Source: Auanema rhodensis
Taxonomy: Eukaryota > Animalia > Nematoda
DNA: 64,000 nucleotides
Direction of reading: 5' to 3'
Assembly (NCBI GenBank): GCA_964057225.1
Contig: OZ059895.1
Location: 9,424,001-9,488,000, forward strand
This document shows, in pieces, positions 3,055-64,000 of this stretch. A program made the position numbers and the translations under genes. The notes beneath the pieces were generated by a model that was given only the letters and a program-made list of their open reading frames with translations, was not told the origin of the DNA and searched no databases. Numbering within the stretch: position 1 is the stretch's first letter; the number at the start of each line of letters is the position of its first letter.

Positions 3055-3133
3055 AATCAACCACTCGTAAATGTACCTATAATGCAAATGATTTCATTTA
3101 TACTAGTGTGCACGCATCAGGTGGTGGTCTGTG

Positions 3134-19356: not shown

Positions 19357-21410
19357 AGTAGAGAGCCATGCCGAATTTACTAACCACGCCCCCAAACAGT
19401 TGCTAAAAACATACTTTTGAGGGCGTCAGCTGCTAAAAACATACTTTTGGGGGCGTCAGCTGTCAAAATCATATTTTCGGCGTCAGCTGTCAAAAATATA
19501 CTTTTCCTCCCGATGCAGGCTCTCGAGCCTGCGCATGGATCAAAATGCATGATTTTTTTTTTAAATCATATTTAAATTTCTTTTTTTTTAAAATATTTTT
19601 AAAATTATTTCTTTTTAAATGTATTTTAAAATTTTTTTTTTTTAAATGTATTTTTAATAATACTTCTTTTCAAATGTATTTTAATATTTATATGTTTCTT
19701 AATTGTATCTTTAAAACTGAATAAATTATTTCTCATGTATATTTTTTTTTATTTATTTAAATATTTTTAAAAGGTAATCAATATGTTCACCGTACCGTTA
19801 CATATTGTTTCTTCCCGTCTTTTCATTGTCGGAAGATATATGTACTTCTACCTTGTTCCTTAGGTAGGCAGACCCGAACGCCCCGATTTCCTTATTAAGA
19901 CAAATACTTAAAGAGAAAAGGATTCATTATCAGATAACAAGAAAATACAATATAAGAATTACATCAAGAAAGAATATAAAGAGATATAATTAAGTATTAA
20001 ATAGAGTATATATATAGATGATATAGAGATGAGATTCACATGACTATAAGACAACCTATCTGGGTTAGGCCAGAAGCAAGAGTGCCATGTGTGTCCCATG
20101 TTGTAGGCGGGGCTTGTTCAGGCTCACGCTATTTGAATAGCGCGCACATGTTTACGATGTTCTTGCAGATGTGACAGTACCTCTATGGGTTAATCAATGG
20201 AACTCATATCGAAGGTTAATTCGATAAGAAGTAATAAATATTTAAACTAAATTTAATGAAACACATATCGAAGGTTAATTCGATAAGAAGTAATAAATAT
20301 TTAAACTAAATTTAATGAAACACATATCGAAGGTTAATTCGATAAGATCGTTAAAACAGGTGCACTACACATGTACCACATGGCAAAAGTTTTGTTCATT
20401 AAAATATGATAAATAGCAGTACAGAACAAGTACCCATAACGCTAAAGAATACTTACTATGCCAAGGGGTCATGAGTATATACGAATATTTTCAAACTTTT
20501 TTAGTATCAAAAATGTTACTTTAAAGTAATTGTTGTTGTATCCTTAATAGTTTATAAATGTTCTGATAGCTAATGTATTTCATAACTATGGCTAAGAATA
20601 GAATAAATATTTCGTAATATATTTATTGAACAATAAATTTTCAATTAAAATTAGAACATGTGTTAACATTTTGTAAGAGTTTCTTTTTTACAAAGTGTCT
20701 GGAAATGTTGTACTTGTAATCGGATGTGTACAAGTCTGTTTTTCGCAACAATCCTGTGTTTCCTCAGTAGGATCCAACACTTTGAATTAGTGTTTCCTAA
20801 ACTATAAAAATAAGAGTGTACCACAGCTGTTATAATAAAAATATGGATACAATATTAAACGATCCTATTGTAATCTTTCACAATTTTGGATGACAGTTGT
20901 TATTGTATAGGGACTTGTCACAAATGAGTTGAATTATTGTTAAATATTTGGACTTACGAAATCGAATGCTGTAACAAGTAATTAATAAGCGGATAGTTTA
21001 CAGGTTGTTAATCCGGCAACTGTTGGCGCAATCGGTGTATTTTAGCGCATTCGGCAGCTGTTTGCGCAACAAACTGCTAATTAATGTATAAATGCATATA
21101 TTTGTTGTAATATATAACAAATAGGAAAGCCGCATACAGCAGTGCCATGTGGTACATGTGTAGTGCACCTGTTTTAACGATCTTATCGAATTAACCTTTG
21201 ATATGTGTTCCATTGATTAACCCATAGAGGTACGGTGAACATATTGATTACCTTTTAAAAATATTTGAAAAAATAAATAAAAATATACATGAGAAATAAT
21301 TTATTCAGTTTTAAAGATACAATTAAGAAACATATAAATATTAAAATACATTTGAAAAGAAATATTATTAAAAATACATTTAAAAAGAAATAATTTTGAA
21401 AATACATTTA
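19357..21410. mobile_element. Internally deleted mini-Maverick (subfamily A), right TIR truncated
   Basis: AGTAGAGAGCCATGCC at 19357. Inverted TIR sequence at ~21150-21410. No coding genes. Confidence 0.75.
19796..20176 (-). mobile_element. Solo LTR (381 bp) with GTAC target-site duplication
   Basis: Interrupts the Maverick TIR sequence CACCGTACCTCTATGGG, with GTAC at 19792-19795 and 20177-20180. Minus-strand termini TGTCACA...TGTAACG. Matches 29137-29517. Confidence 0.88.
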
Positions 21411-21989
21411 TACTGTAACGCATGTAGAGCTCGAATGTGCCATACAGCGTGGCTACAAAGTGCTTCATGTGCATGAGGTGTGGCACTGGGACGAATGGCA
21501 ACATGGCGGCCTGTTTAAAGAGTTTGTACAAAAGTACATAAAAATTAAGCAAGAGGCATCAGGCTGGCCTAAGCCAAATATGACAGAGGCTGAAAAGGTA
21601 TGTTTCATGAAAAGTATGGCATTAAATAACATTTTACAGCTAAAATATCTCCAAGAGCACGAGGAGAACACTGGTGTTGCCGGAGAGAGCAACAAAATTT
21701 CTGGAGAGCAACCAAATTGAAAAGAATGCGACCATGCGTAGCATTGCCAAACTACAGCTGAATAGGTATGTTAACTTTTAAAAACAAAAAATTACAAATT
21801 TGCTTATAGTGTATGGGGTAAAATGGGTCAAAGACCGGATAAAGCTCAAACCAAGATTATTGGTGTTGAGGATCCTGAAATTGGTAGGATCATAACTGAT
21901 CCTGCAAGGGAGCTCACGGGCTTCAAAATTGTGGATGATGTGGCGTACTGTACAACAGTGCCAGAAGACTCACACTTGGCCCCAGCGCC
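21411..21989 (+). pseudogene. pPolB fragment
   Basis: KIKQEASGWP and WGKMGQR motifs. Ends at a B-type terminus. Confidence 0.85.
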
Positions 21990-27503: not shown

Positions 27504-27904
27504 ATGGTTTTCAGCTTCAAACTACCCAGTCAGACAACTGTAATAGGTGCTACCCAATGCGGTAAAACAACCCTCATAAAGCACATATGTGAAAATACTG
27601 AAAAATTTTTCAACGTCCCCATTGATAGAATATTCTGGTTCAGTCAATGTGGGTCATCGTCAGGTGTACCAATAAATGATGAGCGTTTAATAATCATTCA
27701 AGGGCCGCCTGATCCTGATTTGATAAAAGAACAAAAGGGAGTAAATACTATACTAGTGCTGGATGATTTGATGAACTTTTTTCTCATCGAATAAATCATT
27801 TTTACAGTATGGGCTCATCACTGGAATTTGGCAGTGTTTAATCTTGTGCAAGCGGCATTTCAACTGGACAGGACCAGTCGAATCAATAGTACATATATAA
27901 TACT
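27504..27904 (+). pseudogene. Packaging ATPase, 5' part (split by the nested element)
   Basis: GATQCGKT and LVLDD. Ends at STYIIL and continues as MKSHSD after 43495. Confidence 0.9.
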
Positions 27905-29136
27905 AGTAGAGAGCCGTGCAAAATTTACTAACCACGCCCCCAAACAGCTGTCAAAAACATACTTTTGGGGGGCGTCAGCTGCTAAAAACATACTTTTGGG
28001 GCGCGTCAGCTGTCAAAAACATATTTTTGAGCGTCAGCTGTTAAAATCATATTTTGGGATAATGGTTCATGGATTCTCCTTTTTTAAATTTAAAAATCAT
28101 GATTTAAAGCATGATTTAAATTTTTTTTTTTAAATCAAATTTAAATATGCTTTTTTAAATGTACTTTAAAAATCATGATTTATAGTATGATTTTTTTAAA
28201 AATTAAATTTTAAATTTGTTTTTTCAAATGTATGTATATGTTTTTAATTATTTTTAAATATATTAAGTGAAAATAAAAATTATAAATTTTAAATATATAA
28301 ATTTGTTTTTAAATTTTATTTATTTATCATATTTATTAATAATATTTGTTTACTTTTTGTTTATTTTTTATTGTATTGTGTTTGTACTTTTTTATTTGTA
28401 TTTTGAAGAACAATAAAATTTTTGCATGTATATCGTTTTGTTCACCGTACTTGTTATGGGTAATTCAATGGAACACATATCGAAAGTTAATTCGATAAGA
28501 ACGATATGAAATACCAAAATTTAATGGAACACATATCGAAAGTTAATTCAATAAGAACGATATGAAATACCAAAATTTAATGGAACACATATCGAAGGTT
28601 AATTCGATAAGAACGACATTAAATTATTAATTTTTGAAATTACAAATTGTTATTAATTATATTTATTGTAACAAGTAAAGGTTTCAAATTATAATAAAAG
28701 ATTAGTTTTAAACTTTATTTTACTAATATAACAATACAATAACTAAATAGAGCACACATTGAAGGTGAATACGACGGGATTAACAAACAGTTGCGCTGAC
28801 CTCAATGAAACGCATAAAGTTAATTTAATAAGAAGGAATAACAAAAATTGATCCGACGGGGACAATAAAAACAGATGTATTCAATATGCTTATTTATTTT
28901 AAAGTTTATCGCAACTGCTAGTTTTGACAGCTGTACCTAAATCCATGTTACATAACAAATTACAATGCCAACAGCAATGTGTAGACTGATGTATTCATTA
29001 TATCAAGGTACAATGGCTGCTAATAGGTTGTGTCTTTTTGATTATTTGTTTGTAAACTTTTTCTTTTTTTAGTTATAAACGTTTATGTGAAGAGCTAGGA
29101 TTTGATTATGAAGAGATTAATCAGCTCAGGTAATTT

Positions 29137-29517
29137 TGTCACATCTGCAAGCACATGGTAAACATGTGCGCGCTATTCAAATAGCGAGAGCCTGAACAAG
29201 CCCCGCCCACAACATCGGACACACATGACACTCTTGCTTCTGGCCTAACCCAGATAGGTTGTCTTATAGCCATGTGAGTCTCATCTCTATATCATCTATA
29301 TATATACTTTATTTAATACTTTATTATATCTCTTTATATTCTTTCTTAATGTAATTCTTATATTGTATTTTCTTGTTATCTGATAATGAATCCTTTTCGC
29401 TTTAAGTATTTGTCTTAATAAGGAAATCGGGGCGTACGGGTCTGCCTACCTAAGGAACAAGGTAGAAGTACATATATCTTCCGACCATGAAAAGACGGGA
29501 AGAAACAGTATGTAACG
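29137..29517 (+). mobile_element. 5' LTR of an LTR retrotransposon
   Basis: 381 bp, TGTCACA...TGTAACG. Roughly 96% identical by eye to the solo LTR at 19796-20176. Followed directly by a PBS. Confidence 0.88.
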
Positions 29518-29530
29518 TGGAGGTTCCACC
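29518..29530 (+). promoter_or_regulatory. Primer-binding site, tRNA-Gln
   Basis: TGGAGGTTCCACC is the reverse complement of the eukaryotic tRNA-Gln 3' end (GGTGGAACCT-CCA). It lies immediately after the LTR. Confidence 0.85.
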
Positions 29531-30218
29531 TTGCTTACTTTACTGTTAATTTATTGACAGCAAGTTTACGAGACTTTTGGACTTAATTACCCAACAGTGA
29601 GGAGTAACCGAGCCGTGCACCATTATTTCCCCAAAAATTATTTTGGCTACCACTTCTCCTCCGCTCAACAAAAACTGGGAGGTGTCTGAGACGTTTGGGG
29701 AAACTATCAGACAATAGTTTTGACGAGCGTTACCTTTTTGTTATGCACGCGTGCTATTTTGATTTATTACTTTATGATGTGAATGTCCAGTGTGGCAACA
29801 GAGCTCACTTTTTAGCTGAGTTATTTGGAAGCTGGAGGCTGTTGGGATAATTTTATTTACGATTTTTGATTTTGATTCACATCCAAGGGTTCATCAGGGT
29901 TCCACTCCTGTTAACTCTTTTCTTATTAGTTCAGAGATAATAAGAACATTTAAATTCCTACCCACCCAAGTCCACCTTACGTCTGCCAACGTTTCCTTTT
30001 TCCTATATTATTGACAGATTACTGAATTTAAATTCCTATATCAATCTTAAATTGTCTTCTAAATCTTTTGAAATTAAAATAAAAATTATCTTTAATTACA
30101 CACACACTCGACTGGTCGACCGTTTAGGTTGTCTTGTCGTTGTCGTAGGGTAGCTTGAGGGTTAATATCTGTCTTCTGCCTCGTTGCGCACTCGTTTCCC
30201 CTTGGGAATCGTACCGCG

Positions 30219-31379
30219 ATGATGGAGTTGACCAACTTCTTCATCTGTGATGAAGAACACCCTATTTCTACCTGGACGAAAGAAAATTACGAACATGCTA
30301 TTGCTGAATTGGTCCAAAAAATCAAGTTAGGTCCAGACGACGTTCACTTTGACCATGTCACAAGTGAACCTTTCCTTAAACGTCTAACCTTACTTGCTGC
30401 GAGCGACCTACGCAAAAAACTATGCAATTCTTCCCGTCTTACCATCCGACTGAAACAACGATTGTCGGATGAAGAACTTTCTTACCTCAATGAAAATTTT
30501 TCGATGTTTAACATTGAAGTTGCTGGTAACGATCGAGGTCCGCATTACGAACTACGTGCCCTACGAACCATCTTGGGTCATTATATACGTTACCAGCTGA
30601 TTGAAACATCAATCGGAAACAATAACATCCAATTGTCAAAAAAGTACCACGTTTTGCTAAAGGATATAGGAAGTAATCCGTTACAACTTATAAACTCTGG
30701 TTGGACTTCTTTTCATTCTTGTAGCCCAGTTGTCAATGCAGCAGATATTCATCGTAACTGTTCGCAAAATACCCAGCTACAACGTATTCTTGACTTTGAC
30801 CCTGAAATGTTGGAAGTAAGAACTAAAATTTCCGATAGGATTCTGAAAGGAGATCAAATGTACACTTGTAAGAACATGTCGCAACATTGTCAGATAACAG
30901 CCCCATACATGACGTTTATCCACTCCATTTACGATATTTCCCCGGCTGATTTGTTGAAAATGTTAGAAAATACCAATGTGAAGAAGGCGTCCGGAGTAAT
31001 TTTATTTGATCCGATCGTTTTGTTCCAACAATCGGGAAAATTTTCGGAACTAACAGGAGTAAATTTTACTCGATACAAATCACACGGCGTTCAGTGGATA
31101 AAATTTCATTTCGACAACGATTCTCAAGATTCATATATTCATCGTTGGGACACGTACATTGCTATAATTGTATCGTTTGCGATGAGATCGCTTTCCACGG
31201 ACACAATGTACTCAATAATGTGTGCATTGTACATTCGCAATCATCTTGTATTTGATGTTGTCAGAAGCGACTATACTTTACCTAAACATAACGTGTCACG
31301 ATGCCTTCCGTTTGTGTCGCCCACAAACAAATTTTTACTTATGAGCCGTGTGATACAACAATATATGGATATAAAGTAG
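30219..31379 (+). pseudogene. Endogenous (+)RNA virus replicase, part 1: alphavirus-supergroup methyl/guanylyltransferase
   Basis: Motifs GPHYELRALR (His), KDIGSN, HSCSP..NAADIHR, CKN.SQHC and HSIYDI, as in virga/nege/kita-like capping enzymes. Intronless, with higher GC than the flanks. Confidence 0.88.
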
Positions 31380-32795
31380 TCATTGTTCCGATATATAATA
31401 ATTTATTTGAAAGAGTTTTATCCTATGCAATGATGGCTCCGGAAGAGAAATTCACATTTAGACAAGTGTTTACCATCGCTGGTTCGATGAATGTCCGAAC
31501 AATTATTAACGGTCAAACGGTTGAAAGTCGCCAACAACATTCGTATCGCGAATTGTTGTTAATTTCAGTAGCGGCGTATGCGACGGTATATTACGATAGG
31601 TACCAAACGTCACAGACAACACGAGAATTCACCGATTCAGCTTCTGATGGCCGTCACAGTATCCTTAGACGTATAGTCTCCCCTACATTTTATTCCGGAC
31701 TAAAGAGAATAACTCAGACGCATACTGTAGAACTGATGTCCGAAGACTGTAACAAATTTTCCTCTAAGGAAAAGTTAGATCCACTTGAGTTATCTGCCGG
31801 AGACACATTTATTGATAAGATAGTTGACTATCTTTGTACCGACAAAGGAGCATTTCCAATTAAAACTGCTGAACTTCTCGATTACGTTGAGTTTTCTGAC
31901 GTTATCCCTGAGGTGATCAGAGATGATACTACTCTCCTTGAAGATGATCCATGCGTGAAATTAATTTTTCCAGATTCTATCAACCCGACGGTCGTGAAAC
32001 CGAAGTTGCTTCCAGATATACACATTCCGGTACACAAAGTTGTTAACCCAACTGTCATCTCTTGCAATATTACATCTTGTGCCGAAGATTTGGAGACCGT
32101 TCCAACACCGGGTGATGGAGACTGTTTATATCATTCTCTTAGATTATCAGGTGCAACGAATGATTCGGTCGTTGTCATCAAACGTAAACTTGCGTCATCA
32201 GACAAAGCAACGCCAGAGCAAGCTAAACGGCTACTAAGTGCAGGATCTTGTATCGACGAGGAAACTTGGGGTACCTCAGATGACGTACCATTATTTTGCG
32301 GCGCCTATAATGTGGCTGTCTGTTTACATTCGTCAAACGGAAGTTGTATTTTGTATAAACCTGAATATTATACTTCAGACAAGCCTGTGTACCACATCGT
32401 TCATACGGTTAACCACTTCTCCGCGCTTGAAAAGAAAAGACCAAGTTCTAATGGTGTACAACTATCGAAGATATCCGATAATGTTCAAACCGGTGATTAT
32501 CCCACACAGCGAGTGAACGATTTAACAAAAGCGTACGGGACGTTTTTTGAATCCCTTCCAGCAGTCGTATATCGCAGACTAAAAGACGTAATATGTCCAA
32601 CCCACCCTTTAGAGAAAGGAGGCTTTGTTTGTAGATCCGCCATAAAACTATGTGAGTTATACGCTTTAGGGAGTATTGACCTCTATCACGATAAAATCTT
32701 TGATTTATGTAGCGGTCCGGGCGGATTCATTGAATTCGTACTTCAAAATTCTGCAGCCGATATACACACACTGTATGGAACAATTCCCGTGCAGC
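31301..32795 (+). pseudogene. Endogenous (+)RNA virus replicase, part 2: OTU-like protease + truncated FtsJ/RrmJ 2'-O-methyltransferase
   Basis: OTU: TPGDGDCLYHSL...WGTSDD...HTVNHFSAL. FtsJ: CRSAIKLCEL...IFDLCSGPGGF. Joins Maverick mCP sequence at 32796. Confidence 0.85.
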
Positions 32796-33380
32796 GAAAT
32801 AATACGCGGAATCAATGCTGAAGAGAATCATTTATCGCCAACAATACAAAGCCTCTTGGAGCTGAGGAAGAAAAACGTATAAAAAGTTTAATAGATAAAG
32901 ATGAAGATGTAAAAAAGTGGTATAATAATCGCCAGGCTGAGGCTAAGCTAGTGGAGGAAATGCTCGCAGACGCCACATTTCAGTTTAACAAAACATTGCA
33001 GCGCATAGAGTTTGTAACAAGTAAGCGGCTATTGTTGAATGCAACACTCGGTGATGCTCTCGCATATTTTCTTGGTTTTGAAAATAAAAACATCAACGAT
33101 ACAATAATAGCCAGGCGCCCCATTGATTTTTCAAATAACATTAATACAATGTATATATATTGTGATATTGTAAGCTAATTTACTTGCATGTTTACCTGTA
33201 CCACCTCCTACTGAATTTGGTAAAATGATTGCCAAAACATTTAATCCTATTCGTTATGTACCAATCACTAGACAAACACTCGATACCATACGTATTGAAA
33301 TTTTAGATGAATTTGGTCGTCCTATGCAATTTAATTATGGTTCTACAGTTGTTACATTGCATGTTAAAAATATGAAATAA
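32796..33380 (+). pseudogene. 5'-truncated minor capsid gene
   Basis: Resumes at GAAATAATACGCGG (EIIRG). Small deletion at ~33172. Confidence 0.88.
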
Positions 33381-33385
33381 ACGTT

Positions 33386-33850
33386 TTATTCAACAGTTAT
33401 ACAATACCACATTTTTATTTTCGAAGGTTTAAAAGATAGTTTAGGGCAGTTTTGTTTGTCGCTTGGCTCGTGTTGTGAATGTTCTCCGTCACTATTGCTG
33501 CGGCATCTTTTTGATTGGGTTGAATGTACAAACTCCTCAGCTTTTTCAAAGGGTTTGCTGGTATCATTTCCATCACCATCTTCACCATTCGTTCCATTAT
33601 TATTATGAATACGCCGAATATGACGCTCACAATTGAATCTTGTTCCAAAAGTTTCACTACAATGAGGGCACAAACGTCTACGAACACCATCCAAATGTCC
33701 ATATTTTTGAATAAAGTCAGCATTGCTGATATAATTGTTACATATGGGTTGAATCCCTGCATGCCTTTTCGAAACGTGATCACTAAAATGCTTGGTTGAA
33801 GAAAATATTTCCTTGCATGTACCACAATATTTGTTACATAAAAGTTCCAT
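33386..33850 (-). CDS. Two-C2H2 zinc-finger protein (longer C-terminus)
   Basis: Homologue of 26106-26435. Confidence 0.72.
   Translation of the reverse strand: MELLCNKYCGTCKEIFSSTKHFSDHVSKRHAGIQPICNNYISNADFIQKYGHLDGVRRRLCPHCSETFGTRFNCERHIRRIHNNNGTNGEDGDGNDTSKPFEKAEEFVHSTQSKRCRSNSDGEHSQHEPSDKQNCPKLSFKPSKIKMWYCITVE
33415..33762 (-). CDS. Hydrophobic overprinted protein
   Basis: Homologue of 26194-26532. Confidence 0.65.
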   Translation of the reverse strand: MQGFNPYVTIISAMLTLFKNMDIWMVFVDVCALIVVKLLEQDSIVSVIFGVFIIIMERMVKMVMEMIPANPLKKLRSLYIQPNQKDAAAIVTENIHNTSQATNKTALNYLLNLRK

Positions 33851-33891
33851 TAGAGGAAAATGAAAAACGACCACACGCAATCAACCCACTT

Positions 33892-34062
33892 TTATATAAT
33901 GAGCAATAATATGACTAGTGTTGTACAAAAGCCCAATCCCAATGCTATACCTTTAATAAATGGCACTGAAATACATTTCAACATTCTCCTGTATAAAGGC
34001 GCTGGTTTAGATTGCTCCAACGTGTATTTGACACATAATTCACAGTGACAAGGAATATTCAT
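33892..34062 (-). CDS. 56-aa CxCxxC microprotein with hydrophobic C-terminus
   Basis: MNIPCHCELCVKY...GIALGLGFCTTLVILLLII. Confidence 0.65.
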   Translation of the reverse strand: MNIPCHCELCVKYTLEQSKPAPLYRRMLKCISVPFIKGIALGLGFCTTLVILLLII

Positions 34063-34103
34063 AACTGACCACGTAATGTAGCAGGTTATTAATGACAAAT
34101 TTC

Positions 34104-34560
34104 TTATATAGTAGCCAATTTATAGTCGAATACTTTATGCATAAACGCTTTAATAAAGACATCATCATTTTTCAATAGTTTAAAAAAATGAACAAATGCT
34201 TTCAAATGAATTACCAGCCGACAACATTAGTATTACAAATACCACATAGCCACCACAAGTGTATTCAATTATGCGTTGTGGTTTGCATGTATTAATTTTT
34301 ACCTTTTTATATTTGGCCAGATAATTTTGAAAGTACTTGTTCATTTTATATCCCAAGCTACAGAAAAAATAGGCTTGCTTGTTACGGACAAAGATGACCT
34401 GCCAATGTGTGCCTGGCTTATCATGTGTGTCAGTATTTACGACAAGTGCAAAGTTTTTACGACGCGTTTTGGGTGGAGTATCAGCGCTATATACACCGAG
34501 AAATAGTTTCCGAGTGCTGGGGACAGATTGCAATAGTGATACTATTTCAGACGAATACAT
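34104..34560 (-). pseudogene. Adenain-like protease, late frameshift
   Basis: PGTHW and YTCGGY present. Stop at 34180 after a poly-T indel. Confidence 0.88.
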
Positions 34561-34611
34561 TTTAGTAGAATGATCTAGTGTAACTTTTGTATTGCGCGCG
34601 TGCGGTTCGAT

Positions 34612-35073
34612 ATGCCGCACCTCCTTTTGGATGTCAACTCTATTCAATGGACAACACTTTTAAATCAACAAATGGGTGGCGCCCCATTTAGCGGAATGAT
34701 GTTTCAACGTGGAATGCAGAGGGGTCATGGTTTGGGTGGTATTTTGGCAACTTTGGCATCATTTCTGCCACGCATCATTCAATCACCTATAGCCCAAAAT
34801 CTCATCAATGCCGGAAGAAACGCCTTATCCAGTGCTGTAAGCAATAGTCCAGTTGTAAATTCACCTCTTGGCGGACAGTTGCTGAAAACTGGTAATGAAA
34901 TTGTCGATGGGGTGCTGAAAGGCGATAATATCAAGGAAACTCTTGAAACAGCCGGCCGACAAGCTATACGAGATCTTACCGGCTTGGGCAAACGGCGACG
35001 ACGCAAAACCACAAAACCTCATAAGCGGTTGTGCATCACTCGTGAGCGTTTCACATTTAAATGGCTAAATTGA
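34612..35073 (+). CDS. Basic core precursor protein
   Basis: Homologue of 5228-5680. A small 3' deletion alters the last codons. Confidence 0.7.
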   Translation: MPHLLLDVNSIQWTTLLNQQMGGAPFSGMMFQRGMQRGHGLGGILATLASFLPRIIQSPIAQNLINAGRNALSSAVSNSPVVNSPLGGQLLKTGNEIVDGVLKGDNIKETLETAGRQAIRDLTGLGKRRRRKTTKPHKRLCITRERFTFKWLN

Positions 35074-36397
35074 TAGATTCAAAATCAGCACAAGCCCTTT
35101 TACCTAATATCAACTATGGTGATATACCAGCGTCGGCATCAGGTGTAGAGTCTACTCGTACTGTACAAGTCCCTTTGAAAAATACTTTTCTTCCTCAAGG
35201 ACCATGGGAATTTGTTATAGCTCAAAATTTCAAATCATTCCTCAATCTGAGAAGATGTTGGTTGAATGTAAAATTTAAAATTGTAACCACAAACGGTGAT
35301 CCAGTACCAGACAACCTTGTTTTTGCACCATGTCAACAATTTGCTGCCAGTTTAATACATTCGTATCATTTAAAAATTGGCGATGTTAGCGTGTATGACT
35401 CTACCGTGAATCATGCCTATAAAACATATATCGAGAATATTTTAATGTATAGCAACGATGTTAAAGAGAGCAAACTTGCCATATCAGGCTATTATGCTGA
35501 TAGATATATATATATAATGCATCCAGTGCTGGATTTAGAACGCGTCAAACGCTTGTAAAAAATGGCATATTGTGTGAGATGGCTGCTCCCGTCAGTATCG
35601 ACCTATTTAATCAAGAGCGACTGTTTGTAAACTATTCAAAAATGGAGCTTACTGCATATCCAAACCGTGATAACTTTTTAATTGACACTCTAGGCTGGAA
35701 TAATGAAAACAAGGATACTACATTAAAGGAGGAGTTTCCAAATTTGAAAGTAGATATCAGCGATGTACATTTGCTCATGCAAGAGTTTGATATAAACGCT
35801 GGATTAGCTATGGCTATAGAAGATAAACTCGCAAAGGATCGAATACACTACCTCATGACATCAGTGAAAATGCGCTCTTATTTCATAGAAGGAGGCCGCT
35901 TGGATTCACCTAATAATATATTATTCACGTCTCATACACCGAAACGTGTTGTAGTAGGTCTTGTTGGCGCACACGCCTATAATGGTACTTTTAAACATTC
36001 GCCATTCAACTTTAAACCGTTTGATTTGAAAAATATATACTTGACGCTCAACAATAGGGTAATACCTACCCGTCCTTATAATTTAGAATGGCGATCTTCC
36101 TATGCCACAGCATATATTGACATGCTCGAAGGTTTGGGACTTGGTCGTACAGATTCATCCAATGGTATTACACCAGCAATGTATAAAGCTGGTTTCACAT
36201 TTTTTGTATTTGATATTTCTCCTACTGTGCATTCGTCAGAGTTATTTGATGTTATACGACAAGGTAATGTAGCCTTGAAATTGGAATTTGGTCAACAAAC
36301 GCCGCAAGAGGGTTTATATGCTATTGTTTATGCAGAATATGACTCTATTCTTTCAATTGACAACAATCGTGCTCCATATATTGATACCAGTTTGTAA
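35061..36397 (+). pseudogene. Major capsid protein, frameshift in an AT dinucleotide run at ~35505-35516
   Basis: ORFs 35061..35558 and 35570..36397 are collinear with the intact MCP. Confidence 0.9.
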
Positions 36398-37260
36398 TGT
36401 ATGTAATAAACTTTTTAAAACATTTGATGAGAAGAATAAAATTTATTAATACAACTATACATAAAAATCTATAAATACAACCATATACAAATATACACGC
36501 AATAATAAAATTTATAAATTCAAATATACTAAAAATTATTCACAATAACCATAAGGTAAAGTACTAAAATCGTCTAGATAACAAAGTTTATCCATTACGA
36601 CCTTGGTACTCTTTGTCATGTCCATCGTGGATATGGAACCAAGCTGCCTCTTTAATAACGTTGTATTGGTTTTTGAAACCAATTTTTCTCCATCCATCAC
36701 GAGTCCTCGAACCAATCGCTCCATACTTTGATAGTTTACCACGGTGGCTGCCGTGTGGTCCAGCGTCTGTAATTTTAAAAGTTTCTCAATAATATATTTT
36801 TTATACTTTACCAGCTGCATTTACTAGCTCATAACTATAAAGTTTTGCAGCTGGTGAAACAAATTTGGTCATTGACCAACCATCGGGTATTTCTGAGGTT
36901 AGTTTACCTAACCATTCACCCTTCATATCCTCAATTGGATCAGGCTGATCGAGGCATTTTAAATAAATTAGAAAATCGGTGTCTAAATGATATACGTTTA
37001 AATTGTTTACAAAGTATAAAATTACCTGTATACACCAAGGGCTTATATGCAATTGTTTATGCAAAGTATGACTCTATTCTTTCAATTGACAACAATCGTG
37101 CTCCATATATTGATACCAGTTTGTAATGTATGTAATAAATTCTTTAAAAGATTTAAGAATAAAATTTATTAATACAACTATTTTTAAAAAATACATGTAC
37201 AATGATAAAATTTTATAAATACAAATATATACAAGATAAAAATTTATAAATTCAAATATA

Positions 37261-40200
37261 TTAAACACAATAACCGTAGGGTAAAGTACTATAATCTTGT
37301 AGATAACAAAGTTTATCCATTACAACTTTAGTACTTTTTGTCATATCCATTGTGGATATGGCACCGAGTTGCCTCTTTAACAAGGTTGTATTGGTTTTTA
37401 AAACCAATTTCTCTCCATCCATAACGAGTCCGCGAACCAGTCGCTCCATACTTTCAAAGTTTACCACTGATGCTGCCGTGTGGTCCAACGTCTGAAAATT
37501 ATAAAATTATTTGAAAAGTCAAAGCTCGTTCTTACCACTCCCTTTGCCTTTGTTACATACTTTACATCACCAGCTGCATTTACAAGTTTATAACTATAAA
37601 CTTTTGCCGCTGGTGACACAAACTTGGTCATTGACCAACCATCGGGTATTTCAGAGGTTAGTTTACCTAACCATTCACCCTTCATATCCTCAATTGGATC
37701 TGGCTCATCTAGGCATCTTTGATAAATTAGAGAATCCGTGTCTAAATAATGTAAGTTTAAATTGAATACAAAGTATAAAATTACCTGTATACACCAAATT
37801 CTTTCCAATTTTCTCCGTTGCCTTATACAATAGTAGCCTTGCATGAGCGGTTGTATAGGCCGCAATAGCTACGTTTGTAAAAGGCGGTGGTGCCAAATGT
37901 GAATCCTCTGGTACTGTTGTGCAGTACGCAACATTATCCACAATTTTGAACCCAGTGAGTTCCCTTGCAGGATCAGTAATGATCCTACCAATTTCTGGGT
38001 CCTCAACACCAATAATCTTGGTTTGGGCTTTATCAGGTCTTTGACCCATTTTACCCCAGACACTATAAGCAAATTTGTAATGTATTGTTTTTAAAAAGTT
38101 TACAAACCTATTTAGCTGCAGTTTGGCAATGCTACGCATGGCAGCATTCTTTTCAATTTTATTGCTCTCCAGAGCAACACCAGTGTTCTCCTCGTGCTCT
38201 TGGAGATAAATCACCTGTAAAATTCTATTTAATGTGATACTTTTATTAAAACATACCTTTTCTTCCTCTGTCATGTTTGGCCTTGGCCAGCCCGACGCCT
38301 CTTGTTTAATTTTTATGTACTTTTGTACAAACTCTTTAAACATGCCGCCTTGTTGCCATTCTTCCCAGTGCCACACCTCATGCACATGAAGCACTTTATA
38401 GCCACGTTGTATGGCACACTCGAGCTCAACATGTGTCACAGTTAGATGCAGCTTTCTAGCATTTACATCATTTTGGTGCTCACATGCTACATTTTTACTC
38501 TTGACTGCACAAGTGCGGCAGTTTGTAAAAATTAATTTACCGCCAATACGTGTGCCTAATACAGGGTACAGCAAATTTGTGGGTGCAAGCACGTCACATT
38601 TTACTAGCCCCTTGTATGGGCAACATGTCTCAAAGCTTTTGAAACCCTCAGTAATAACTTTGGGATTACCTACAGGGTAATAGGCATCAAAAGCGGTGAC
38701 ATATGGATATAGTGAACAAAAGTCCACATACTCGAGCGAGTATCTATCCGAAGCTTGTGCCAAAAGCTTATATGTCTGGGTGCGGCCACCGGTAAAGGCA
38801 TCTCTAGGTGCCAAGCGTGTAACAACATTTGTTTCACGCATAAATTTCGCCATTTCTTCATTGGCCGAAATTTGAGCATTAATTTCGTGCTCCCACACAG
38901 TGGTAACACTAATGCCTTGGCTTTGAATTGCTTCAAGCCTTTTCATGGTTTTATCATAAACCTAAATTTTTCAAATTAAAATGATTAAAAAAGTCACAAT
39001 TACCTCTTCCATTGTTTCACCATTTCTGCCTGGTGCTATAGCGCTCTTGTTGGTGCACTGGGGGCAACCATGGTAAATGCAACCATTAATCTACAAAAAT
39101 TTGCATTTTTTACATTTTTTACAAATTACTCACCTCATAGCCATGATTGGCAACGGGGTCATAAGCATCGAGTAGATAGCGATGGCCATCTACTCTCACT
39201 GCAAATTCGCCACCATTAAGCTTATGCATTAATGGGCGGCCCAATCCTTGTTCTAGCCATTTTAGATACTTTATGGCTATTATACTCTGCTTTTGACCGG
39301 CATAATAACCAGTCTCGGGCAGAATACCCACTTGGTTCTCTTTAATATGATTCATTTTCAACTGTAATATACTAGTTTTGAAAATGCTTGTATTTGAAAA
39401 AACTTGCCTGGAATAAAGAGAAACTGGCAAATGTCATACATTGTATGACAGGGTTCCAGCCAGTGGTGGCGGTTGCCAACTTCATGTAAACTTTCATACA
39501 GTTGGTTAAAATACGGACATCTGTCCTACAATATTCCAAAAGCTCTTCATCAAAATCAAACGCTCTTTGATTACGCTCTTCATACCAAATATTGAATGAA
39601 GCTAGGTCTTCTGCTTTCATTCTAGCAGTACAATAGTACTGTTTTGGTGGTAAAGATGGCAACACTTTGCCATAATTTATTGGATGATTATAAAGGTAAG
39701 GAAACTGTCCTTTACTCATATCAGGTACACCGAATGCCTTGGGTAATGCTGATAAGGGTAAAGGCACTAATAAATAACTATCTTTAAAATATAAATGATT
39801 AAATTTTTGACCTCTTAAAGGCTTGACAACCATGCTAATAATCTTGGTCCCATTTAAAATTGGATCAGGATATATTCCACGGTTTATCAGCCTAGACACC
39901 AAGAAATGTATGTCAAAGCGTGAACCATTATGCGCAATCAAAATTGCATTATCATTCTCAACAGAGTTGAGTAACCAATCAAGGAAACGATCTGTTACAG
40001 ACCATTCACTATCACCTTGTTGGTACCCAAAATGGCCCTCCTTGGTTGTGCATTTTTCGCATGAATTGGCGTCTATACAACTTTCACAAAATTTATTATA
40101 CACAACCATATTGGGCCATTGTTCATCTGCATATTCATGAACATTTGTACCGTTTTTTAACACAACCGTTTCAAAGTCATAGAATATAATCTTAAACAAG

Positions 40201-42318
40201 TAAGCATTACACTTGTAAAGATGTTAAATACAAACCTTGTATTTTTCTTGCCTCTTTTTTAACTGATCCTTCTTCTTGTCGTTAGGTGGTACCCAACAAC
40301 AAGAATGATCTTCAGGCTTTGTTTGCCCACACTTTTTGCAAAATTTCTCATTGCAATTGTGCGGTCTATCAGCACGTACTCTGTGATAATGATCACAGTT
40401 TTCACATGTCTGAATTTAGTCTTGTTAAATTTTATATAAATTTTTTAAATTACCTTAAACATTCGACATGTTTTTCTAATATGCCTGTCAAAGCATTGAC
40501 GAGTTTTGAACAAAACTCTACAACTATCACATCTTATGCTACTTTCAACCACATTTTCCATCGAATTACATTTTAAGGTGTGGCATTTCTTACACTTGGC
40601 TTTACATCTATGCAACACTGTTTTGTAAGATAATTTACAGTGTTGGCATATATCACCATCAAAAACCTGTGATCTACTACAAGTAGTAATACAGTCATAA
40701 TGATTATTTCGGTAGCCTAGTGTTACCACTTTGCTAGCCGTTTCATTAAAGATACGCTGAATAGCGTACATACGCTGTCCAGGTGGCCTAGCGTATACTA
40801 CAAACTTATAGTCTGTATTACAACTTGCAATAATATTTAAATGGTTCAAATTATAATTTGGTAAATGTACAGAAATACCACACCTATTCAATAAATTGAT
40901 ATGATGTGGTTGATTTGGCAACAAGATGTAGTTGCGACGAAGATTTTGAATCCTCCGCTTCTCAATTACATCTTCTGCTGCCTCTTCATCGGCTTTCCAC
41001 ATTCCCACAACTGCTGCTCTAGCCAGGCAATGTGTATCAGTGTTCTCAATTGTGCCAGGTATTTTGAGTTCGGCATCAAAATAGAAACCAACTCTACCTT
41101 CACCAGGCATCAGGCTTGGCTGCACTGGTCTCTCATCAAACACAAAGGATGGGTGCTCTATTGATAGACAAAATAGCGCTTTTTGTTTATCTGGCACACC
41201 ACTTTCAGCAAGGCACCGATCAAGGAACTCATTAAATAGCCGCGGCATGACAACATGCATTGGCTCATTAATGTTTTCCAAATGTGGGAACGTGAGCGAT
41301 CTAACGACCACGTTGGTAAACCGACCAGTGCGTTTTATGCGTCGGTGTGACCACTATAATACACACTTTTTATAATGGTTATTTAGTTTAGATATTTAGT
41401 TTAAATATAAATAATTTTTGTTTATAACTTTTAATAAATTTACTTTTCTTTAAATTATTTTTATATTCTTTTATTAAAAATAAATGGCATTTGATTTTTA
41501 AATATAAAGTTTTTTCTTTTATAAACATTTGTTAATGTTTAAAAATAAATGAAAAGGTCAAGATGGTGTTTTATTATTTTACTAGTTCAAAATGTTTGAA
41601 ATATTTATAATTTGTAAGAATTCAAAATTGGTTGAAAGAAAGATATATAGTGAGATGAAATGTAAAGATTTTAAAATGAATGCTGTTCAAAAGAATGAAT
41701 ATATAAGTTTCAAAATACTTGCAATTTGTTTGATAAAAGATATAGATTGAGATGAAATGTAAAGATGAGAGAGAGAGAATTTTATGAATGCAATTGAAAA
41801 AGAGATATAAATTTCAAAATGTTTTCAAAATATGCAATTGGAGCAAGAGAAAATTTCATGTTTCAAAAGATATTTTATGAAATGATATGTAAATAAAAGA
41901 TCGCACCTCTATTTTACAGACATCGTTGAATGCCGCTCCATATCCGACTTGCCCTCCACTGGTTGATGGGGTAGCAGGATCCCATTCGCTTAAAAAGAAA
42001 AAACTAAATGTTATAATTTTAATATCGCTTACTCATCACTGTCATCCAAGGTTATTACTTCAATAACCCTTGATGATGAGGGCCCACTGTTAAAAGTGGG
42101 TGATGTGGGCTCACAGAGCTCGATCCCACCAGCCTCGGTAAACTTTATACGTTTACTAAAAAACAAAATATATATAAAGATTCAAAATATTGTTAAATTA
42201 CCTGAGCTGATTGATTTCTTCATAATCAAATCCTAGCTCTTCACATAAACGTTTATAACTAAAAAAAGAAAAAGTTTACAAACAAATAATCAAAAAGACA
42301 CAACCTATTAGCAGCCAT
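37261..42318 (-). CDS. Protein-primed DNA polymerase B, 14 exons. Appears open after splicing apart from a ~45-codon in-frame deletion at ~41143
   Basis: All exo and pol motifs are restored by GT-AG/GC-AG splicing. Start MAANS at 42318. Confidence 0.85.
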
Positions 42319-43501
42319 TGTACCTTGATATAATGAATACATCAGTCTACACATTGCTGTTGGCATTGTAATTTGTTATGTAACATGGATTTGGGTACAG
42401 CTGTCAAAACTAGCAGTTGCGATAAACTTTAAAATAAATAAGCATATTGAATACATCTGTTTTTATTGTACCCGTCGGATTAATTTTTGTTATTAGTTCT
42501 TATTAAATTAACATTATGCGTTTCATTGAGGTCAGCGCAACTGTTTGTTAATCTTATTGTATTTACCTTCAATGTGTGCTCTATTTAGTTATTGTATTGT
42601 TATATTAGTAAAATAAAGTTTAAAACTAATCTTTTATTATAATTTGAAACTTTTACTTGTTAGAACAAATATAATTAATAACAATTTGTAATTTCAAAAA
42701 TTAATAATTTAATGTCGTTCTTATCGAATTAACTTTCGATATGTGTTCCATTAAATTTTGGTATTTCATATCGTTCTTATCGAATTAACCTTCGATATGT
42801 GTTCCATTAAATTTTGGAATTTTATATCGTTCTTATCGAATTAACCTTCGATATGTGTTCCATTGAATTTTGTATTTCATATCGTTCTTATCGAATTAAC
42901 CTTCGATATGTGTTCCATTGAATTACCCATAACAAGTACGGTGAACAAAACGATATACATGCAAAAATTTTACTGTTTTTTAAAATAAAAACAATACAAA
43001 CACAATACAATAAAAAATAAACAAAAAAAGTAAACAAACATTATAAATAAATATAATAAAGAAATAAAGAAATAAATAAAATTTAAAAACAAATTTATAT
43101 ATTTAAAATTTAAATATGATTTATATATAAAATTTAAAGTTTAAATATAGTTTATATATATAAAATTTAAATATAATTTAAATATTTAAAATTAAGATTT
43201 TTATTTTTACTTAATATATTTAAAAATAATTAAAAATATATACATACATTTGAAAAAGCATATTTAAATTTGATTTTAAAAAAAAATCATGCTTTAAATC
43301 ATGATTTTTAAATTTAAAAAAAGAGAATCCATGAACCATGATCCCAAAATATGATTTTAACAGCTGACGCTCAAAAATATGTTTTTGACAGCTGACGCGC
43401 CCCAAAAGTATGTTTTTAGCAGCTGACGCCCCCAAAAGTATGTTTTTGACAGCTGTTTGGGGGCGTGGTTAGTAAATTTTGCACGGCTCTCTACTAATAC
43501 T

Positions 43502-48232: not shown

Positions 48233-49264
48233 GCTGTTGTACACTCTTATTTTTATAGTTTAGGAAACACTAATTCAAAATGTTGAATCCTACTGAGGAA
48301 ACACAGGATTGTTGCGAAAAACAGACTTGTACACATCCGATTACAAGTACAACATTTCCAGACACTTTGTAAAAAAGAAACTCTTACAAAATGTTAACAC
48401 ATGTTCTAATTTTAATTGAAAATTTATTGTTCAATAAATATATTACGAAACATTTATTCTATTCTTAGCCATAGTTACATTAGCTATCAGAACATTTATA
48501 AACTATTAGGGCTACAACAACAATTACTTTAAAGTAACATTTTTGATGTTAAAAAGTTTGAAAATATTTGTATATACTCTTGACCCCTTGGCATAGTAAG
48601 TATTCTTTAGCGTTATGGGTACATGTGGTGTACAGCTAGTTATCATATTTTAATGAACAAAACTTTTGCCATGTGGAACATGTGTAGTGCACCTGTTTTA
48701 ACGATCTTATCGAATTAACCTTCGATATGAGTTCCATTGATTAACCCATAAGAGGTACGGTGAACATATTGATTACCTTTTAAAAATATTTAAATAAATA
48801 AAAAAAATATATATATGAGAAATAATTTATTCAGTTTTAAAGATACAATTAGAAAATATATAAATATTAAAATACATTTAAAAAGAAATAATTTTAAAAA
48901 TATTTACAAATACAATTAACAAATATATAAATAATAAAAATTCATTTAAAATAATACATTAAAAAAATAATTTTAAAAATGAATTAAAAAAAAAAATAAT
49001 GCATTTTGATCCATGCGTAGGCTCGAGAGCCTGCCTCGGGAGGAAAAGTATATTTCTGACAGCTGACGCCGAAAATATGATTTTGACAGCTGACGCCCCC
49101 AAAAGTATGTTTTTAGCAGCTGATGCCCTCAAAAGTATGTTTTTAGCAACTGTTTGGGGGCGTGGTTAGTAAATTCGGCATGGCTCCCTTAAATTTAGTT
49201 TAAATATTTATTACTTCTTATCGAATTAAATTTGATATGAGTTCCATTGATTAACCCATAAGAG
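48233..49264. mobile_element. Subfamily A subterminal/TIR fragment with truncated terminus
   Basis: Reverse complement of the 19357-20830 region. Terminus ends CATGGCTCCC at ~49188. Confidence 0.75.
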
Positions 49265-50403
49265 CTTCCCCTCATCGTTCTGCCATCGCTCACTTCGCAG
49301 CTCAAGGCCTCTCTGCAGCTGAAATATCTCGAAGATTGGAAATTCCATATTCAACATGTCACAGGATCGTGAAACAATTTAAGGACACTGGTGATGTTAC
49401 TACAAAGCCGAAACCTGGAAGAACCCGTACTGTCAACGTTCCGGCCGACAGAAAAAAAATTTCGTAGCGAATTGAGAGAGATTCAACTGTGAGCATGCGG
49501 AAGATGGCTCATGAGCTCAATATTTCTACTGAACGTGTTCGTTTTATCGTAAAAAACAAACTTCATCTCAAAAGTTATCGGATAAGACGCGGACAAGCAC
49601 TCACAGAAACATCAAGAAAAAATAGATTTGAAAAATCTGTCAAAATCCGAGAATTGTTACGTTCCGGTCAACTGTCGAACATCCTATTCACAGATGAAAA
49701 AATTTTCACGATTGAAATGCTGCCCATTCGACAAAACTTTCGCCAGCTACTGACAAAAGATCAAGCTCACAGTAGCAGCAGGATTATAGCTACTCGTTCT
49801 CTTTTTTCTGAATCCGTAATGGTTTGGGGCGGCATAACCGCTAATCGCAAAACGCCGCTTGTTTTCATTGATAGAAATGTTAAGATCAATGCAGCAACAT
49901 ATCAGAAGGATATTTCGGAGAATGTACTGATACCGTGGATGCAACAAAACTACACAATTGGTCAAATGATTCTTCAACAGGATTGGGCACCAGCTCATAG
50001 CGCGAAGAGTACCATCATGTTCTGTCAAGAGCATTTTCCTGGATACTGGGGCAAGGACTTATGGCCTTCAAACTCGCCCGACCTAAATCCTTTTGATTTC
50101 TCAGTCTGGGGAGTGTTAGGAGCAAAACTGGAAGGTAAAACATTCACTAATTTGAATGACTTGAAAAGAGCTCTACTCCAAGCGTGGGACGAATTAGATG
50201 ACGACTATCTTCAAAACACTATAAACAGCTTCCGGAGGAGGATTTCAGCCGTTATCAGAGCCAAAGGAGGACATTTTGAAAAATCTTTGTAAATTAACTT
50301 TGTAAAATAATACCCTATGTATAAATAAAATTTGATTAAAAAAAACTGTTTTTGTTCCAAATATTAACATTCGAGAATCTCTCAATACTTCTCACCCACC
50401 CTG
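49265..50403 (+). mobile_element. 5'-truncated Tc1/mariner element, DD37D (maT) transposase pseudogene
   Basis: LFTDEK...QQDWAPAH...NSPDLNPFD, with 37 residues between the second and third D. Right end ...CACCCACCCTG followed by TA. Stop/frameshift at ~49466. Confidence 0.9.
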
Positions 50404-52048
50404 TATATAAGAAATAATTTATACAATTAAAAAAATATATAAATATTAAAATACATTTAAAAGAGATATTGTTAAAAATACATTTAAAAATACATTTAAA
50501 AAGAAATAATTTTAAAAAGACATTTAAAAAGAAATATATCTAAAAATACATTTAAAAAGAAATAATTTAAAAAATATTGAAAAAAAATAACTTTAAAAAT
50601 GATTTTAAAAAAAAATCATGCATTTTGATCCATGAGCAGGCTCGAGAGCCTGCCTCGGGAGGAAAAGTATATTTTTGACAGCTGACGCCGAAAATATGAT
50701 TTTGACAGCTGACGCCCCCAAAAGTATGTTTTTAGCAGCTGACGCCCTCAAAAGTATGTTTTTAGCAACTGTTTGGGGGCGTGGTTAGTAAATTCGGCAT
50801 GGCTCCCTTAAATTTAGTTTAAATATTTATTACTTCTTATCGAATTAAATTTGATATGAGTTCCATTGATTAACCCATAAGAGCTTTTTCCTCTTATGGG
50901 TTAATCAATGGAACTCATATCGAAGGTTAATTCGATAAGATCGTTAAAACAGGTGCCCTCATGTACCACATGGCAAAAGTTTTGTTCATTAAAATATGAT
51001 AAATAGCTGTACACGACATGAGTAGAGAGCCATGCCGAATTTACTAACCACGCCCCCAAACAGTTGCTAAAAACATACTTTTGAGGGCGTCAGCTGCTAA
51101 AAACATACTTTTGGGGGCGTCAGCTGTCAAAATCATATTTTCGGCGTCAGCTGTCAAAAATATACTTTTCCTCCCGAGGCAGGCTCTCGAGCCTGCTCAT
51201 GGATCAAAATGCATGATTTTTTTTTAAAATCATTTTTAAAGTTATTTTTTTTTAATATTTTTAAAATTATTTCTTTTTAAATGTATTTTTAAATATATTT
51301 CTTTTTAAATGTCTTTTTAAAATTATTTCTTTTTAAATGTATTTTTAAATGTATTTTTAATAATATTTCTTTTAAATGTATTTTAATATTTATATATTTT
51401 TTTAATTGTATAAATTATTTCTTATATACAGGGTGGGTGAGAAGTATTGAGAGATTCTCGAATGTTAATATTTGGAACAAAAACAGTTTTTTTTAACAGA
51501 AAGTTCTTTTTTGGGCACTGCATATAAATCTAATACAGCGGGAGTGCCCAATGTCAAACCCGGGGGGTCTGGGGGGGTATCCCCCCCAGATGTATAGAAG
51601 CATACTTAAATATCAAAATAAGATTCATTCTTAAAACTATTTCATTTTTCGAATTAATGACAATATTTTAAACTAACGACATTTTTTAAAATTTTTCTAC
51701 TGCGTGCAGATTTATTTTGAATGCAAAAGAAGTGAAAAGACGCCGTTTTTACATTAGCGCAACATCATTTGCATATAGCATACCCTAGCAAGCTAAATGG
51801 TGACGGTTATAGCGCAGTCGGTAGTGGTATGGGTTATTAATCCTAACTTATAAGATCGGATTCCGCTACCGTCGCAAATAGCCCTGGGAACACATAAAAA
51901 TGGGTGGTGGCAACTACTAAACCAGCCCCATAATTTTAAAAATATTAAAAAAAAATAACTTTGAAAATGATTTTTTAAAAAAATCATGCATTTTGATAAG
52001 TTATGTTTTTAGCAGCTGACGCCCCCAAAAGTATGTTTTTAGCAGCTG
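50404..52048. repeat. Cluster of subfamily A Maverick termini forming an inverted duplication
   Basis: 50340-50796 is mirrored at ~51027-51494. Terminus AGTAGAGAG at 51021. Confidence 0.8.
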
Positions 52049-63400: not shown

Positions 63401-64000
63401 GCATCACAATATTGAAATTTAAATGTTTTTTAATGATTAAAAATTTAAAAAATGAAATTATGAAATAGTGGTAGAAATATAAAATTGTTTAAAATTTAAA
63501 TATTTTTTAATGATTAAAAATTTAAAAAATGAAATTATGAAATAGTGGTAGAAATATAAAATTGTTTAAAATATGGAATTAAATAAAATAGATGAAGTGA
63601 ACTTGCTTGGAAAATATAAATCAGTTTCATGTTTCAATTTTTGAGCATCACAATATTGAAATTTAAATGTTTTTTAATGATTAAAAATTTAAAAAATGAA
63701 ATTATGAAATAGTGGTAGAAATATAAAATTGTTTAAAATATGGAATTAAATAAAATAGATGAAGTGAACTTGCTTGGAAAATATAAATCAGTTTCATGTT
63801 TCAATTTTTGAGCATCACAATATTGAAATTTAAATGTTTTTTAATGATTAAAAATTTAAAAAATGAAATTATGAAATAGTGGTAGAAATATAAAATTGTT
63901 TAAAATATGGAATTAAATAAAATAGATGGAGTGAAATTGCTTGGAAAATATGAATCAGTTTCATGTTTCAATTTTTGAGCATCACAATATTGAAATTTAA
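60440..64000. repeat. 167-bp tandem satellite (~21 units, runs off the window) derived from pPolB intron 4
   Basis: GAGCATCACAATATTG recurs at 61563, 61730 and 61897 (167-bp period). The array starts just inside the intron acceptor at ~60365. Confidence 0.95.

Follow-up and report, generated by a model that had tools for sequence, protein, structure and literature searches.

We analysed a 64,000-nucleotide stretch of the genome of the nematode Auanema rhodensis (contig OZ059895.1, positions 9,424,001 to 9,488,000 of the forward strand; hereafter the window), most of which consists of Maverick (Polinton) copies that are arrayed here, nested within and recombined with one another, with five left and three right Maverick ends detected across it. 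Inside one of these copies lies a second Maverick element of 15,591 bp (27905-43495, with ends AGTAG...CTACT; hereafter the inner copy), and this in turn holds the end of a long terminal repeat (LTR) retrotransposon fused to part of an RNA virus. The three-layer nest at this locus is real and preserves the capture of an RNA virus well. Here an earlier note on this DNA was right to report three mobile classes in one duplication-bounded stretch, with the LTR, its primer site and the virus open reading frames (ORFs) all present inside the Maverick. The packaged vector that the same note had proposed is without support. Read-contig evidence comes from public Logan contigs: 14 runs from four studies contain the stretch wholly or partly, six of the 14 hold at least half of its words, and four (X1, X3, X5 and X6) were compared with it. 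None of the 14 is listed as an RNA run, which is neutral evidence. Contig depth is used throughout as a rough measure, and breaks in the inner copy were called against two to four neighbouring Maverick copies. The features are, from left to right:

27899-27904, no strand: left target-site duplication (TSD), AATACT, within the ATPase gene of the surrounding Maverick
27905-29136, plus strand: left arm, with the terminal inverted repeat (TIR) of the family to about 28816, then about 320 bp normally found on the polymerase side only
29137-29517, plus strand: 5' LTR of a high-copy retrotransposon, 381 bp, TG...CG, 96% identical to a solo LTR at 19796-20176
29518-29530, plus strand: primer-binding site, 13 nt, matching the 3' end of tRNA-Gln (reverse primer match to tRNA-Gln(CTG))
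29531-30053, plus strand: retrotransposon leader, high copy by contig depth
30054-30218, plus strand: 165 nt lacking any ATG, likely the 5' untranslated region of the virus, placed by contig depth and presumably starting at the true viral 5' end
30219-32795, plus strand: first third of a nege/virga-like (Martellivirales-type) replicase, by profile and homology matches, cut at 32795
32796-33383, plus strand: 3' remnant of the minor capsid gene, its 5' part missing
33386-34659, minus strand: zinc-finger ORF and adenovirus-type protease (zf-C2H2_4 and Peptidase_C5, both under the gathering cut-off)
34612-36397, plus strand: putative core protein and major capsid gene
36309-37797, no strand: tandem duplication of about 730 bp, two copies 82% alike
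37273-41353, minus strand: protein-primed DNA polymerase B (pPolB), by profile and homology, with nine predicted introns of 42-46 nt
42195-43495, minus strand: right arm, polymerase side, with TIR, by similarity comparison
43496-43501, no strand: right TSD, AATACT, beyond which the ATPase gene continues

The inner copy integrated into the ATPase gene of another Maverick with a 6-bp duplication, and the ATPase is continuous on both sides. The perfect TSD splitting this gene that the earlier note had claimed is thus present, and an ATPase paralog at 2434-3100 is unbroken at the corresponding insertion site. The chance of a given 6-mer here is p ~6.6e-4, flanks match in only one of the 15 left-by-right pairs that the ends in the window allow, and the AATACT duplication is real. 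Two separate insertions at one 6-bp site were considered and rejected, as the eight flanks show no sequence preference. Long TIRs with AG-starting ends (here arms of 1,232 and 1,301 bp) and 6-bp TSDs are Maverick/Polinton traits; published TIRs range from 100 to 1,500 bp and elements from 13 to 25 kb (10.1101/2023.08.22.554363; this and the other papers cited are drawn on through parts of their text), and AG-starting end motifs are described for Mavericks (PMC8097293).

Within 27905-43495 we found no similarity to the integrase, the ATPase or the intervening ORFs (the PW-PZ stretch) of the surrounding copy, as the earlier note had stated; the names core, PW and PZ are putative labels of that note. 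The integrase and packaging ATPase expected of an autonomous Maverick are present in the surrounding copy and absent from the inner one, which is a non-autonomous Maverick derivative. As to the surrounding copy itself, its ends at 21990 and 48232 have unmatched flanks from different targets (AGCGCC versus GCTGTT), so that it is a recombinant of two insertions rather than a single one, and therefore a weak yardstick for element size.

The two arms of the inner copy are not those of a regular Maverick. The integrase-side arm of the surrounding copy departs from the common TIR at inner position 28816, whereas the inner left arm still matches the right arm up to 29136, and contig depth roughly halves beyond the TIR in both well-covered runs (5567 to 2989 in X1, 1274 to 680 in X3). 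Aligned with each other, the inner arms have 1,212 sites in common, of which 66 differ, and 13 gaps in addition; their outermost 200 bp or so show two differences in 199 columns, and the outer 200 bp are nearly identical across all four arms. The claim of intact termini therefore stands for these outer 200 bp and fails for the arms as a whole, since the left arm is polymerase-side and not integrase-side. Between 28401 and 28816, the left arm shares its letter with the left arm of the surrounding copy at 11 sites and with its right-hand counterpart in the inner copy at 12, while four sites are private. It further carries a private 76-nt tandem duplication (28089-28240), the first unit of which resembles the right arm and the second the other haplotype, at about three letters, so that this two-type duplication resembles the scar of a crossover. 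With both arms from the polymerase side and of differing haplotype, the unit, like its left arm, is a recombinant. That the left arm is a copy of its own right arm alone was rejected, because it carries letters of another copy that the right arm does not have.

The retrotransposon and the virus are fused at 30053/30054, where the LTR, primer site and leader are joined in sense to the 5' third of the replicase. In X1, high-depth contigs stop at 30053 and a low-depth contig begins 30 nt earlier, presumably a k-mer overlap. At the other end the virus abuts the minor-capsid remnant at 32795/32796, a junction that a read contig in X1 bridges by 54 nt, so that public read contigs support both fusions. 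An LTR, a tRNA primer site (matched with the tRNA-Gln(CTG) reverse primer sequence of PMC7744096) and short TSDs at insertions of the family are all present, as in an LTR retrotransposon. Other flanks of the LTR family occur in the read contigs, and the LTR with leader differs from the common family form at no fewer than ten of the sites listed, over 917 nt. LTRs usually end in CA, and the one here ends in CG. No gag-pol that would separate Ty3/gypsy from Bel/Pao lies in the window, and an exact scan of a metagenome collection for the LTR-primer join returned zero matches. The solo LTR (19796-20176, minus strand) lies in the TIR of an A-type Maverick and is flanked by a 4-bp duplication (GTAC); the sister TIRs show the empty site. 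Maverick arms house both LTR copies of the window.

The viral part consists of two ORFs linked by one frameshift near 31340-31380. Pfam matches identify a capping methyltransferase (Vmethyltransf, E 1.3e-18) and the start of an FtsJ domain (E 2.8e-6), and an OTU-like stretch between them is weak (best PDB match E 0.058). The ORFs align collinearly to residues 51-826 of a replicase of 2,488 aa bearing a helicase and RdRP_2, at 35% and 26% identity. A HMMER search with the viral methyltransferase gave 293 matches, and a word-based protein search with it gave none among 3,146 candidates. The top relatives scanned carry helicase and RdRP_2 in six of six cases and FtsJ in three of six, and the Martellivirales domain order is thus seen as methyltransferase then FtsJ-like in the window, with helicase and RdRP_2 in the relatives. 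The nege/virga-like label is one that we presume from this domain order, the RNA-dependent RNA polymerase lying outside the fragment. Loose backing for the label can be found in part of PMC12770441. With 35% identity to its nearest relative, the fragment records an unsampled virus lineage. At 31340-31430, all four runs also contain another viral sequence, related to this one but differing in its upstream part, whose depth is 3 to 13 times that of the viral contig: a related endogenous virus exists elsewhere in the genome, possibly in several copies.

The viral stretch occurs at roughly one copy, compared with roughly 90 Mavericks and 130-175 retroelements. Its contig depth lies at the floor of contig depth in all four runs: 52.4 against 39.9 for low-copy variant contigs in X1, 8.39 against 8.8-8.9 in X3, 2.8-5.2 against 10.2-10.8 in X5, and in X6 3.1-6.6, where 2.3-3.5 was expected. 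Relative to that level, family contigs reach about 55-93 times for Mavericks and 130-175 times for the retroelement leader. In X1, the deepest run, positions 30024-32849 form one unbranched contig with zero differences that runs through the virus/minor-capsid junction, so that no longer version of the virus branches off there, and all 10 viral pieces listed over the four runs are likewise free of differences. The earlier note had proposed a search for this junction at other loci as a test of mobilisation: it occurs once in the window and gave zero records in two public collections, one metagenomic and one viral, neither of which tests an animal locus well. The left TSD junction is unbridged among the 26 contigs listed of 46 in all four runs, and this is uninformative because the contigs likewise lack private letters of this copy that lie beside the confirmed virus contig; the depth just left of it equals that of the listed non-junction pieces in all four runs. 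Equally uninformative is the lack of coverage of the leader (29535-30035) in X5 and X6.

The earlier note also held that the element keeps the capsid, protease, core and pPolB genes. The capsid part of this does not hold: the minor capsid is 5'-truncated with two further breaks (near 32820 and 33173) and the major capsid has a frameshift near 35510. Protease and core are broken at their ends (near 34188 and 35049). pPolB is better kept than it appears. These five breaks in the capsid block are private to the inner copy which, to judge from its reading frames, supplies no capsid, in contrast to the intact capsid of an autonomous Maverick. The identity of the capsid gene holds because the intact major capsid of a neighbouring copy was modelled as a double jelly-roll, as in Mavericks and Polintons (predicted local distance difference test score, pLDDT, 75), matching iridovirus, PBCV-1, mavirus and Sputnik capsids with a best Foldseek E of 6e-16. 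The inner major capsid is about 96% like this neighbour but frameshifted, and the best named capsid match is an Aphelenchus protein. The intact minor capsid of the neighbour resembles Preplasmiviricota proteins by its features. The C2H2 zinc-finger ORF (33386-33850, minus strand), between minor capsid and protease, is common to both Maverick subfamilies.

The two halves of the tandem duplication are near-identical to neighbours (copy 1 is 99-100% like the copy at 16100-17020, and copy 2 is 100% like the surrounding copy over 376 nt), which points to a recent local exchange. This bears on the length of the unit, which the earlier note found close to the 15.5 kb or so of a complete element of its type and which turns out to be uninformative, since it owes 729 bp to the duplication and the outer copy used as yardstick has unmatched flanks. 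By coordinates, 5,457 bp of Maverick were lost and 4,891 bp (arm, LTR and virus) plus the 729-bp duplication were gained. The size match as a packaging signal was thus rejected, being the sum of unrelated losses and gains.

The pPolB gene is identified by the profile PF03175 (E 1e-22 and 6.5e-17), as expected of a Maverick, and is 37% identical to Caenorhabditis pPolBs, its best named matches, with one in-frame gap near 41144 relative to two A-type neighbours. Compared with the Caenorhabditis proteins it contains extra stretches, stops and frame changes, all of which are explained by length if nine AT-rich stretches of 42-46 nt are removed. These predicted introns (37492-40453, minus strand) comprise eight GT-AG and one GC-AG, with AG before the donor in eight of the nine, and the neighbouring subfamily, about 88% alike (7385-10341, minus strand), retains GT..AG at seven of the eight GT-AG sites, as well as the GC donor of the remaining one of the nine. 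The same scan gave 16 overlapping matches in 4,061 nt of pPolB (three of them, at 39830-39767, lie in open frame and were not counted as introns), one in the capsid and integrase genes of neighbours (3,261 nt), and none in the virus. On this evidence pPolB is predicted to carry nine spliceosomal introns, and the capsid and integrase genes none. That they might be introners was rejected, as they are no more alike than shuffles; introners are reported inside dinoflagellate polinton-like elements (PMC12166617). The core genes of described Mavericks lack introns, with intact vertebrate Mavericks (PMC8097293) and those of C. plicata (10.1101/2022.07.12.499685) described as intronless in the parts of these papers used here, and the gene here departs from this in its nine predicted introns. 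A literature search covering few subscription papers and no supplements found no report of an intron-rich Maverick pPolB. If true, such a polymerase would mean a Maverick family dependent on nuclear splicing and long resident as a genomic element, which may matter more than the virus-capture locus.

We think it probable that the locus is a broken Maverick in which an LTR-retrotransposon end fused to an RNA-virus part was built in place, and that it has likely not spread since. Assembly in place is favoured by the near-single copy of the viral stretch, the lack of a longer form, the broken capsids and the local examples of each process, as all those invoked are seen elsewhere in the window: a Maverick within a Maverick, a solo LTR in an arm, ends with unmatched flanks, and patches of near-zero divergence from neighbours. 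The idea that the unit moved, or could be packaged, with its cargo is unsupported, given a viral stretch at the depth floor in four of four runs, its one difference-free contig and the broken capsids. The alternative that the earlier note itself had offered, of events in situ, fits better but misses one step, namely the swapped left arm. We hypothesise that this arm came from a second Maverick nested in the left part of the first one, or from ectopic conversion, with a crossover between direct-repeat TIRs; Polinton-driven TIR rearrangements are described in C. elegans (10.1101/2024.01.15.575659), and TIR extension and chimeras in long-TIR elements such as Galileo (PMC3573991). A reverse transcriptase could have left the co-packaged viral RNA and returned to the retroelement leader as its template. 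A sense-strand join that lies just upstream of the virus ORF is consistent with such a presumed copy-choice mechanism, which has been proposed for a nodavirus within an LTR element (PMC5177903) and for virus-LTR hybrids (PMC6797480). The retroelement integrase would then have inserted the hybrid into the non-coding Maverick arm, one end-joining deletion would have removed what remained of the virus, together with the 3' LTR and the block from integrase to ATPase, and the unit may since have decayed as a single-locus relic.

Several points weigh against assembly in place. The haplotype signal of the left arm is mixed, with 12 sites siding with its own right arm, and the putative scar amounts to about three diagnostic letters. 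The viral depth in X1 is 1.3 times the low-copy level and that of one X6 contig about twice it, X1 may be the source of the assembly itself, and Logan contig depth is, according to the text of the tool, not a copy number. Arms from two copies are also expected of a composite transposon, and a cut-and-move event, the excision that we assume as the model of Polinton transposition, would likewise leave one copy. Moreover, every stop and frameshift in the roughly 4 kb of pPolB is accounted for, against five breaks in 3.7 kb of the capsid block, and this contrast could reflect selection during replication after capsid loss. Finally, the in-situ route requires three or four events.

A first rival, in line with the earlier note, is that a composite that had two polymerase-side arms facing outward and carried the LTR-virus cargo was built elsewhere and moved here once by a helper integrase, with the capsid optional and the donor since excised or lost; this we regard as unlikely, if by no means far-fetched. 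The perfect TSD encloses the whole unit, the arms are of two haplotypes as those of a composite would be, pPolB is frame-consistent once the predicted introns are removed, and some 90 family copies (a rough figure) could have acted as helpers. The length lies inside the 13-25 kb Polinton range (10.1101/2023.08.22.554363), and nematode Mavericks do bear cargo beside the left TIR (10.1101/2022.07.12.499685). Against this reading, the length rests on the 729-bp duplication, near-identical to neighbours and so probably local and recent, and the integrase-side arm is absent. The terminal 200 bp agree with the right arm of the element, as they would had the swap affected the inside only, the junction was found once, and at about one copy by depth neither a donor nor a longer form was seen in the runs compared. 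If such a helper-dependent composite, with its frame-intact and intron-bearing polymerase, had moved a retro-captured virus fragment, it would be a DNA-virus-like element serving as a second-stage carrier of RNA-virus sequence, which seems to us doubtful.

Still less probable is that the cargo rode a different Maverick copy, which was nested into or copied onto the resident one and then fused with it by TIR crossover and deletion. The LTR does lie within the foreign, polymerase-side portion of the left arm, and LTR and leader are no less diverged from their family form than the Maverick parts are (at least ten listed sites over 917 nt), but these counts are too few for ordering events and a second virus copy was not seen in the read contigs. 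A partial assembly or polishing error among some 90 near-identical copies, producing the arm swap, the 730-bp duplication and the patches of 0% divergence from neighbours, is very improbable: those patches and the uninformative gap among the contigs listed over the left TSD junction in four of four runs speak for it, against a matching TSD, an ATPase continuous on both sides, and a retroelement/virus/minor-capsid stretch that forms one read contig.

As it is, the locus offers a clean snapshot of RNA-virus entry into an animal genome, with LTR, primer site and leader attached, a join located to a single base just upstream of the virus ORF, and an abundant parent retroelement. It is also a warning that TSD and TIRs do not date contents, since nested Maverick arrays can reshuffle arms and yet keep the TSD, and an occurrence of the unit at a second site would define a new cargo class for Mavericks. 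Retro-capture of RNA viruses is already known in nematodes, and so, separately, are retroelements within polinton-like elements; the same literature search turned up no Maverick reported to contain an RNA-virus/LTR hybrid. As described in part of PMC5177903, eBxnv-1, a nodavirus in a Bel/Pao LTR element of Bursaphelenchus xylophilus, shares a positive-strand virus in a nematode LTR element at single copy, without differences between strains, and copy-choice reverse transcription was proposed there; in contrast, the virus here is nege/virga-like, represented by the 5' methyltransferase third and not the RdRp, has a 5' LTR only and a high-copy parent, and lies inside a Maverick. The nematode Mavericks of Widen et al. 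(10.1101/2022.07.12.499685) likewise have foreign sequence beside the left TIR, in their case host genes between the TIR and an intact integrase in several species, whereas the present element lacks the integrase block, received its cargo via a retroelement and has nine predicted introns in pPolB where their core genes are called intronless; the ORFs scanned here include no fusogen, although no search was aimed at fusogens. The present Maverick family may be contained in the nematode Polinton tables of 10.1101/2023.08.22.554363 or the supplements of Widen et al.

Among other systems, the Ngaro elements in endogenous mavirus-like elements of Cafeteria (PMC8547959) are also retroelements nested in polinton-like elements, often in TIRs or intergenic sites, but those are tyrosine-recombinase retroelements of a protist, with host elements largely intact and, in the parts of that paper used, no RNA-virus cargo; whether they use their hosts as a vehicle is a question which that paper, too, leaves undecided. 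Galileo (PMC3573991) shares a long TIR growing by internal sequence of one arm, with patches from other subfamilies; it is a P-type cut-and-paste element whose two-TIR chimeras mostly lack matching TSDs, whereas the unit here keeps them. Viral DNA (vDNA) and endogenous viral elements of non-retroviral origin (nrEVEs) in Aedes (PMC6797480) include LTR-virus hybrids with viral 5' untranslated region joins in transposon-dense loci, and differ in that the virus here is in sense to the LTR.

Elsewhere in the window, 19357-21411 and 48233-49267 are small Maverick-derived elements with A-type TIRs and no long ORF inside (a 126-aa one lies nearby), one of which is interrupted by the right end of a B-type copy. 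At 49495-50292 (plus strand) a Tc1/mariner-like ORF with a weak DDE_3 match (E 0.005) lies within a Maverick remnant and is adjoined by inverted arms of 486 nt (50323-50808 and 51024-51509). Judged by eye, 1-1276 holds a fragment resembling a long interspersed nuclear element (LINE) endonuclease (about 1-570), followed by a small element (about 571-1276) with terminal inverted repeats of about 25 bp. A 167-nt repeat lies upstream of pPolB in A-type copies (60430-64000, 11579-12314 and 53990-54727), and at the end of the window it is expanded into a satellite array of more than 20 units, a Maverick-born satellite.

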